From contig JBAQTF010000010.1 in assembly GCA_049296855.1 (NCBI GenBank), positions 22,094-86,093 on the forward strand: 64,000 nucleotides of DNA, written 5' to 3'. The DNA comes from Minisyncoccia bacterium. Its GTDB lineage: Bacteria; Patescibacteriota; Minisyncoccia; Phycocordibacterales; DATDWN01. Position 1 is the first letter of the stretch, and each line of letters starts with the position of its first letter. The translations under genes and the position numbers were made by a program. The notes under the pieces are model-generated. The model was not told the DNA's origin. It did not search any database and was given only the letters and a program-made list of their open reading frames with translations. Positions 16,878 to 17,105 of the stretch are shown here, one piece after another.

Positions 16878-16896
16878 CATGTTGCTGGACCTGGAC
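16878..16896 (-). repeat. Degenerate duplicate of the initiator-tRNA 3' end
   Basis: Plus-strand catgttgcTggaccTggac here versus cgtgttgcGggaccAggac at the tRNA 3' end (17031-17049). Confidence 0.55.
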
Positions 16897-17001
16897 ACTT
16901 TGGAAACCCACGGTTTTCCAACATTCGCTTCGCTCACTGCCTTCCTCCACAGGAAACTCTCGTTTCCCGACCCCTTCCCAAGTCCTGGCCCCTTACAATC
17001 G
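16897..17001 (-). repeat. Copy 2 of the small tRNA-3'-end-associated element, in inverted orientation
   Basis: Reverse complement contains GTGGAGGAAGGCAGTGAGCGAAG...TTGGAAAACCGTGGGTTTCCAAAG, near-identical to the core of copy 1 (14790-14895). Confidence 0.5.
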
Positions 17002-17027
17002 AAAAAACTCCCATCTGGGAGTTTTTT
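17002..17027. terminator. Terminator hairpin immediately 3' of the initiator tRNA
   Basis: AAAAAACTCCCATCTGGGAGTTTTTT. Confidence 0.6.
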
Positions 17028-17034
17028 CTACGTG

Positions 17035-17105
17035 TTGCGGGACCAGGACTTGCACCTGGGTCTGCAGGTTATGAGCCTACCGAGATACTGCTTCTCTATC
17101 CCGCT
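17035..17105 (-). tRNA. tRNA-Met (anticodon CAU), probably the initiator tRNA-fMet
   Basis: A1xA72 mismatch at the top of the acceptor stem (AGCGGGA/TCCCGCA), A11:U24 in the D-stem (GAGA/TCTC), anticodon loop CTCATAA, T-arm CCAGG-TGCAAGT-CCTGG. Confidence 0.65.

Follow-up and report, generated by a model that had tools for sequence, protein, structure and literature searches.

A small structured element at tRNA and protein genes of Patescibacteria that carries copies of the adjoining gene end, and a possible case for its mobility

The stretch of DNA studied here (the window) comprises 64,000 nucleotides (nt) from a Minisyncoccia bacterium (contig JBAQTF010000010.1, positions 22,094 to 86,093), and our subject is a small repeated element that lies in it behind two tRNA genes; coordinates below are those of the window. 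The copy that occupied us most follows an initiator-like tRNA-Met(CAU) on the minus strand (17034–17105), recognized by ARAGORN and Rfam and showing A1xA72 and A11:U24 in its sequence. The part of this target gene from the T-loop to the 3′ end (CAAGTCCTGGTCCCGCAACA, 17033–17052) is called X, as it is the template of both an inverted copy, R, and a direct copy, X′. All the following parts lie on the same strand. X is followed by a terminator-like hairpin (T, or Y in the general layout; 17001–17028) with 13/13 arms and A/T runs on either side, and then by R (GGGGCCAGGACTTG, 16979–16992), which is complementary to X at 13 of 14 positions (93%), the single mismatch being of the G.T type on the minus strand. 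The core (16900–16978) begins with a 5′ module (16950–16978) made of the purine-rich segment J1 (GGAAGGGGT) and the hairpin P2 (CGGGAAAC-GAGA-GTTTCCTG, with one G.U pair), continues through the junction J2 (16922–16949), which consists of TGGAGGAAGGCAGTGAGC and a variable GAGC-rich linker, and ends with the hairpin P4 (TTGGAAAACCGTGGGTTTCCAA, 16900–16921), whose outer pairs covary (UA/CG). The string TGGAGGAAGGCAGTGAGC does not vary among the copies sampled, in part because it was demanded by the search patterns. Beyond the core lie X′, the displaced or duplicated copy of the tRNA 3′ end (GTCCAGGTCCAGCAACA, 16880–16896), and a second terminator-like hairpin, T′ (GCAAAACCCCAT-GAAA-ATGGGGTTTTTGC, 16845–16873). 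An earlier note, made from the sequence alone, had read the minus strand as tRNA-Met, terminator hairpin, element and a degenerate duplicate of the tRNA end; this order is confirmed by ARAGORN, Rfam and repeat analysis, the strings 16878–16896 and 17031–17049 agreeing at 16 of 19 positions. The inverted copy R, the modular build of the core and the second terminator hairpin at the Met copy had gone unnoticed in that note.

The sister copy (14738–14919, plus strand) stands behind tRNA-Asp (14686–14762, again found by both ARAGORN and Rfam) and has the same parts in the same order: X (14738–14762), T (14763–14792), R (14797–14808), P2 (14820–14842), J2 (14843–14870), P4 (14871–14892) and X′ (14896–14919), with a small hairpin T′ at 14943–14963. 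The inverted copy of X between terminator and core is complementary at 12 of 12 positions here (100%), the spacing of X and R is 47 nt as compared with 46 nt in the Met copy, and the copy of the tRNA-Asp 3′ end comprises 18 exact bases. The two cores had been described as near-identical, which is borne out: 67-nt arms are 88% complementary between the two loci (about 88% identity), a pairwise alignment gives a mean column identity of 81% over 184 columns, and exact blocks of 19 and 25 nt occur twice each in the window when none is expected (100 shuffles). The similarity therefore exceeds short low-complexity hairpins, and P2 differs between the two copies through compensatory changes. Two tRNAs of different identity thus carry one element family, each followed by a copy of its own 3′ end, as the earlier note had it. 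Read on the element-sense strand, the general layout is gene end X–Y, R, J1, P2, junction GUGGAGGAAGGCAGUGAGC with linker, P4 and X′(–Y′). A 15-nt reverse-complement fragment of the junction (ttcgcttcgctcact) lies at 14297–14311 (plus strand), in a hairpin downstream of tRNA-Met(e) (14218–14289), and is perhaps what is left of an inverted copy of the element.

Across both copies run open reading frames (ORFs) of about 80 codons with related peptides (ETHGFPT..LTAFLH), at 14788–15039 (minus strand) and 16870–17112 (plus strand), in each case antisense to the element. The earlier note regarded them as artefacts that annotation pipelines may miscall as genes. They exist as described, and the warning is fair, if minor: neither is called as a gene in the source assembly, and the peptide gave only six weak matches (E ≤ 0.001) among 1.84 billion representative proteins, one of them an unrelated repeat protein.

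To sample the family, an 18-mer from the junction was run over 185,579 species genomes. This gave 55 loci, of which 14 (15 copies) carry a whole element and the other 41 are unrelated coding sequence; all 14 are in metagenome-assembled genomes (MAGs) of Patescibacteria (Paceibacterota, Saccharibacteria and Kaiserbacteria). A two-block pattern gave 40 metagenome loci. The element is accordingly small, non-coding and multi-copy, with two copies in the window and 53 matches elsewhere, spread over the 14 genome and 40 metagenome loci, and every named source is a Patescibacteria MAG. When duplicates and truncated copies were dropped, 47 distinct copies, the window's two included, could be aligned; they are phylogenetically related, and counts made over them are not independent. 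One contig (L051) ends in at least two tandem units of 181 nt. In another copy (L089, 3367–3465, minus strand) an extra perfect hairpin (tcgaaaagatt...aatcttttcga) is nested in the 5′ side of P2.

A search for a conserved RNA family, proposed in the earlier note, came out negative: Rfam 15 at the gathering threshold has no match for the element in either copy. With E allowed up to 10, rnk_pseudo overlaps the Met copy (16839–16970, minus strand; 17.7 bits, gathering score 55, E 9.3), and the other matches are the two tRNAs themselves, a weak Plastid-ycf2 on tRNA-Asp, a weak RNAI at 14679–14793, a weak mir-484 on the Asp terminator hairpin (14767–14789) and further weak, unrelated matches elsewhere. 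By eye we saw neither a hammerhead motif nor a group II intron domain V nor any real similarity to signal recognition particle RNA or RNase P RNA, and the short resemblances to the latter (GGAGGAAAG, CAGUGAGCGA) look coincidental. Phage and plasmid collections searched with the element by blastn gave no match, and four exact 17-mer matches in viral contigs proved to be unrelated coding sequence. Literature searches by sequence strings and keywords found no description of the element, and the family is apparently undescribed so far.

The two hairpins of the core have the support of covariation. In the 47-copy alignment, 98.5% of the cells of P2 and P4 are paired, with changes on both sides in seven pairs, and the covariation score of 0.252 (0.121 in shuffles) was reached by none of 500 shuffles and collapses when the partners are slid. 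The summed minimum free energy is −698 kcal/mol for the sense strand and −615 kcal/mol for the antisense strand. Mismatches in P2 and P4 are more often of the G.U type (11) than of the A.C type (3), and the same holds for X:R and R:X′ taken together (9 as against 2), counts that are indicative only since the copies are related. It is the sense strand that folds better, and the molecule that folds could be RNA or single-stranded DNA. Full-length folds pair X with R (z-scores −4.8 and −6.7). In 40 copies, with at most one mismatch allowed, the inverted repeat X:R has a mean length of 13.9 nt (7.9 nt when shuffled) and the direct repeat X:X′ one of 14.5 nt (8.4 nt when shuffled). A closing stem formed by R and X′, which flank a core of about 95 nt, had been considered as the selected feature; this idea is weakened by X:R being longer than R:X′ in 33 of the 40. 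Across the aligned copies the loop is conserved and the stems are variable, and the core divides into a conserved 5′ module (J1–P2–GUGGAGG) and a swappable 3′ module. A coding function on the sense strand was rejected, for although a GUG follows GGAGG, linker lengths differ by +1, +7 and +12 nt, so that neither a reading frame nor a peptide is conserved across the copies. The antisense strand of the core is free of stops in 39 of 47 copies as compared with 12% of shuffles, which is suggestive only, the copies being related.

The earlier note had taken the two copies in the window to mean site-specific insertion at tRNA 3′ ends. An origin by insertion fits best, and is supported by empty tRNA-Met(i) and tRNA-Asp sites in relatives with the same gene order (see below) and by the presence of the family behind tRNAs of at least ten anticodon classes elsewhere in the Patescibacteria. 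Specificity for tRNA, on the other hand, is not supported: of the 55 pattern matches (element-bearing sequences, window included) only 19 have a tRNA called upstream by ARAGORN (Asp, Met, Gly-GCC, Gly-UCC, Phe, Arg-UCG, Arg-CCU, ‘Trp’, Glu-CUC and Glu-UUC), to which a few further tRNA 3′ ends can be added by eye, and the same core is found at rpsI, at a GT4 glycosyltransferase gene, at murD and lepA and in a methyltransferase gene. Altogether this one core stands at more than 15 unrelated target sequences, protein genes included. At rpsI (six loci, gene order conserved) it follows the last codons of ribosomal protein S9 (...PQWSKR*). At the GT4 glycosyltransferase gene (six loci), murD and lepA the 5′ end is the target, and the element lies directly upstream in the opposite orientation. 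In an S-adenosylmethionine-dependent methyltransferase gene (L070 and L076) it sits in frame inside the gene, the ORF reads through it and the Pfam match spans the insert. What the sites have in common is a conserved motif near a gene end, not a tRNA: X is the most conserved motif there, be it the T-loop and acceptor end of a tRNA, PQWSKR, NWGGA, the GLG segment of MurD or the SIIAHID segment of LepA. Two of the tRNA targets belong to one MAG, JAYRSE01, which carries the element after tRNA-Gly(GCC) (L013, 3448–3519) and after a tRNA called Trp(CCA) (L051, 324–395); their acceptor, D and T arms are identical and only the anticodon arm region differs.

In all gene-end cases the intact gene body is on the R side of the core and the duplicate on the far side, and in every target class that was inspected by eye R and X′ meet the core at one and the same coordinate of X. 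Each target class has its own arms R and X′, which equal the local gene end. The direct repeats are variable and diverged, from 7 to 36 nt with at most one mismatch and up to about 60 nt by eye. X′ runs on into a second terminator in L013, L088 and the Met copy of the window, and into a relic start codon and about 15 further codons at the GT4 and murD sites. Relic and functional gene ends differ in the manner of orthologues, with compensatory changes in the duplicated terminator of L088 and L013; L013 has a near-perfect long palindrome X′–T′–R′. The insertions at 5′ ends have no hairpin at the centre. In all six of them an ORF from the relic start traverses the antisense strand of the element, three different frames being used; it ends either 0–20 nt short of the new start codon or in an overlap with it, as ATGA, so that expression can be kept by translational coupling.

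Six relatives share the gene order gatCA, SH3-like gene, tRNA-Met(i) with the window, and the element is patchy among them. Both tRNA sites are occupied in the window. L108 and L109 have the element at tRNA-Met(i), the tRNA-Asp site lying outside the contig or locus; L102 has it at tRNA-Asp and an empty tRNA-Met(i) site (X–T only); in L110 the tRNA-Met(i) site is likewise X–T only and the tRNA-Asp site is also empty; L106 has a different insert at tRNA-Met(i) and another core, family B (below), at tRNA-Asp. In L105 the tRNA-Asp site is empty, and the tRNA-Met(i) gene (about 2260–2316, minus strand) has behind its terminator, and adjoining it, 9 nt copied from the 3′ part of the same tRNA (CGTGGCCCC), and lacks both R and core; this may be the footprint of a deletion of the element. 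Empty rpsI sites (L112, L122) read X–stop–T and have no R, so R arrives with the element. The complementarity seen after some tRNA-Pro and tRNA-Arg genes that have no core of the kind described so far (family A) had prompted the idea that R is a native part of long terminators; at rpsI and tRNA-Met(i) the empty sites carry a terminator but not R, and there the idea was rejected. The rpsI–grpE spacer also receives unrelated long-hairpin insertions (L113, L114, L116); in L113 the insertion has terminal inverted repeats of 15 nt without a mismatch and has duplicated CTAG at its target.

The Asp and Met copies of the window are orthologous to those of L102 and L109, with derived changes of X′ in common (GTTCAGA; GTCCAGG); the T-to-A change in X′ of the Met copy is also present in the orthologous copy of L109. 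Between these orthologues the part T–R–P2–GGAGGAAGG is nearly identical and the 3′ half is replaced or interrupted, the break falling always directly after GUGGAGG(AAGG) in L102 and L109, and likewise in the copy of L111 (whose S9 protein is 99% identical to that of L061). In the 3′ half the two paralogues of the window resemble each other more than they resemble their orthologues. For the adjacent protein the best homologue is only 57% identical, no closer relative of the window genome being available, and exact insertion boundaries are therefore unreadable. In two genomes that are about 76% identical overall, a block that is 97–100% identical (L064, 7560–8200; L065, 1340–1980) takes in R, the core, the relic GT4 start, the intergenic promoter region and the first approximately 100 nt of a sugar transferase gene, which suggests a recent recombination tract including the element.

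A second core, family B, occurs in the window after tRNA-Arg(UCG) (55482–55662, minus strand) with the layout X–T–R–core–X′ of family A: X is at 55637–55662, T at 55617–55636, R, split by a hairpin, at 55564–55614, the core at 55494–55563 and X′ (CCTGCCGGGTGA) at 55482–55493. Its motif GGKRTACTGNNCCTGTAAGG is also found in L106, in L110 and in L108 and L109, where it is nested in the family A copy.

Taken together, we think it somewhat more probable than not that this region is a member of a family of Patescibacteria insertion elements that are small, structured and non-autonomous and that are, or formerly were, mobile. Integration would take place by a crossover at X, which we would place at its 5′ edge. 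The element would supply or duplicate a short gene end, leaving the target gene intact and the old end as a relic, and X′ would be a hybrid of a few element bases and the old end of the host; such a hybrid fits in that X′ of the Met copy has the T-to-A change in common with its orthologue in L109 and the rest of X′ tracks the host. R together with X or X′ forms a stem having the sequence of the target duplex, and a folded single strand (DNA or RNA) might bring element and target into register for a trans-acting recombinase or nuclease, a proposal drawn by analogy with the attP(+) hairpin of CTX phage and the attC site of integrons. We can also imagine, as a tentative and rather unlikely extension, a re-targetable, homology-guided mini-integrative element in which the folded stem of R with X or X′ directs a trans-acting recombinase or nuclease to any sequence. 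On that extension an enzyme of the host or a helper would be bound to the conserved 5′ module, several cores (A, B and short variants) would use the same machinery, and an element that carries or rebuilds a gene end could colonize essential genes at their most conserved motifs and leave them alive.

Several points weigh against an insertion element. The surroundings of the window copies yielded no transposase, integrase or reverse transcriptase, and none is common to the neighbourhoods: clustering of the ORFs within 6 kb of 55 copies returned target-specific gene order only, with no recombinase, reverse transcriptase or nuclease. Nor is there, within 6 kb of any of the 55 copies, a parent insertion sequence with a transposase and the same ends, a search that did not extend to whole genomes. 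Neither a pair of filled and empty alleles within one population nor a circle junction was seen, so mobility is inferred from distribution. The segment T–R–P2 is about 97% identical in relatives whose adjacent protein is about 55% identical, and its conservation could reflect purifying selection on a function rather than selfish spread. The re-making of R when a new gene is colonized has no explanation, and the search patterns demanded parts of the core, which biases the sample to the canonical form.

The conservation of T–R–P2 is what one would expect if the region were a vertically inherited, cis-acting structured RNA under selection, a 3′ trailer of tRNA or rpsI or a 5′ leader, whose core binds a protein or ligand and in which R pairs with the gene end X or with a decoy X′ as a three-segment switch. 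The covarying hairpins, the wobble asymmetry in favour of the sense strand, the folds that pair X with R, the retention of the Asp and Met copies at orthologous sites in distant relatives and the way X′ follows a change in X (T/T in the window, C/C in L109) all agree with such an RNA. The orientation of the element, however, is fixed to the gene body and not to transcription; the element is antisense at GT4, murD and lepA; it is translated in frame within the methyltransferase; it is patchy among relatives of the same gene order; its 3′ half can be swapped and unrelated cores occur in the same layout; X′ decays while X:R stays near perfect; the relic start codons and terminators are real duplicated gene ends; and a terminator hairpin stands between the tRNA and the element. 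We therefore regard a cis-acting RNA as possible but unlikely.

The duplicated gene ends could also have arisen by template switching during replication at terminator hairpins, a hairpin-type miniature inverted-repeat transposable element (MITE) having entered the palindromic junction later. Tandem inversion duplications produce direct–inverted–direct copies, and the order X–Y, inverted X, X–Y can be read as a trimmed triplication of this kind; the long palindrome of L013 and the presence of ordinary MITEs with short target duplications in the same rpsI spacer (CTAG in L113) point the same way. Yet the same core would have had to land in independent junctions at dozens of genes, the 5′-end insertions have no central hairpin, R and X′ adjoin the core at one coordinate of X in every class inspected by eye, and empty sites show neither R nor duplication. 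Such an origin calls for too many coincidences, and we consider it very unlikely. Integration into tRNA genes leaves, as its textbook signature, a direct repeat of the tRNA 3′ part with an intact tRNA beside one of the repeats, and the repeat from T-loop to 3′ end that flanks foreign DNA here might then be the scar (attL/attR) left by the integrase of a phage or integrative element, the core being an attP arm that outlasted the deletion of the element body. A sequence-specific integrase would not yield one core at more than 15 unrelated targets, protein genes among them; there is no integrase nearby and no match in the phage or plasmid collections; and neither covarying hairpins and R nor copies that are in frame or read through are expected of arm-type sites. 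Scars of this sort seem to us very improbable indeed. The insertion element described above is the reading we retain.

Two other RNAs and some neighbouring genes of the window deserve mention. A full-length match to LOOT RNA (RF03000) lies at 38559–38677 (plus strand; 83.7 bits, gathering score 46.4). A tRNA-Ser with anticodon ACU (35563–35650, minus strand) is 200 nt from a divergent tRNA-Ser(GCU) (35845–35937); for a tRNA-Ser of bacteria, A34 is an unusual anticodon base. Between tRNA-Met(e) and tRNA-Asp is an 84-codon GIY-YIG ORF (14374–14628, plus strand; Pfam E 4.8e-15), and at the equivalent spot relatives have a LAGLIDADG ORF (L102, 6007–6714; L105, 2672–3289), so that two homing-endonuclease families share one tRNA spacer. 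Beside the LAGLIDADG ORF of L102 the tRNA-Asp gene (about 6700–6990) is split in its anticodon loop by an insert of about 230 nt and is not called by ARAGORN.

Among known systems, the tRNA-targeting elements with tyrosine integrases have the same intact tRNA, foreign DNA and displaced copy from T-loop to 3′ end, and there too the element-side copy keeps the gene functional. They differ in that the insert here is about 130–200 nt with no integrase and no ORF function, has an inverted copy R and a core of covarying hairpins, and occupies many unrelated targets, as opposed to one target per integrase. Elements of the IS200/IS605 group reportedly choose their target by an internal guide sequence; they likewise have an internal segment beside a hairpin that is complementary to the flanking target and are strand specific, acting on single strands, but their guide is 4–5 nt as compared with 12–23 nt here, they make no target duplication whereas the one here is long, and neither TnpA nor TnpB was found among the ORFs within 6 kb of 55 copies. 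Mobile endonuclease ORFs of mitochondria are said to replace the 3′ end of a host gene, the old end staying as a relic, as in atp6 of Allomyces. There as here the gene functions with an end copy of foreign appearance, and its former end is still present further downstream, although our element has no ORF, and genes of the GIY-YIG and LAGLIDADG families lie close by in the tRNA cluster only.

Like MITEs and the palindromic elements of Rickettsia (reviewed in PMC10969869), the element is small, non-coding, multi-copy and hairpin-forming, and it shares with the Rickettsia elements a tolerance for in-frame insertion into ORFs (L070, L076) and an occurrence in transcribed spacers (PMC10969869). It differs from MITEs in that its inverted repeats copy the local target and have no fixed sequence, its duplications (12–60 nt) are variable and diverged and include gene ends, and no parent insertion sequence is known. 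In the attP(+) of CTX phage, one of the elements that rely on Xer recombination, the target site is present twice in inverted orientation, about 90 nt apart, and folds into a single-stranded DNA hairpin of about 150 nt, the stem of which mimics the chromosomal site; the order after integration is site, cargo, inverted site, loop, site, and tandem arrays occur (PMC3089051, PMC3442271). The topology is the same here, with inverted target copies R and X′ flanking a core of about 95 nt, a fold of one strand and a wobble asymmetry, but the targets vary by copy and are not dif, the cargo is a gene end of 30–70 nt and there are no genes of filamentous phage. Integron attC sites recombine as a hairpin of one strand, with structure counting over sequence, and their cassettes have the order core site, cargo, inverted repeat, loop, repeat (PMC4792948), which is analogous to the order found here. 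In our copies, however, the loop is conserved and the stems vary, the reverse of attC; copies are dispersed and not arrayed; no RYYYAAC/GTTRRRY boxes are present at the rpsI, GT4 and murD junctions, only the tRNA T-loop (GTTCGAT) resembling such a box; and no integron integrase or attI was seen near the copies. In its working the element resembles both small non-autonomous elements of the integrative or MITE-like kind and mobile DNA that replaces gene ends, and it departs in defining features from a classical MITE, a tRNA-integrase element, a Xer-dependent element, an attC site, an IS200/IS605 derivative and all Rfam families.

Patescibacteria have tiny genomes and few recognized mobile elements. 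Elements of 100–200 nt seated on the most conserved motifs of essential genes (the T-loop and acceptor end of tRNAs, the C-terminus of S9, the P-loop region of LepA and the N-terminal glycine-rich segments of MurD and GT4) would be a compact form of survival for selfish DNA in a streamlined genome, the gene being kept alive through a duplicated end, translational coupling or in-frame read-through. On the practical side, the copies yield pseudo-fragments of tRNA ends, spurious ORFs, 5′ extensions of genes and assembly breaks, and a covariance model for the element would improve the annotation of Patescibacteria MAGs. If it is true that the inverted target copy guides integration, this would be a new principle of programmable recombination, built on about 100 nt of structured nucleic acid in cis.

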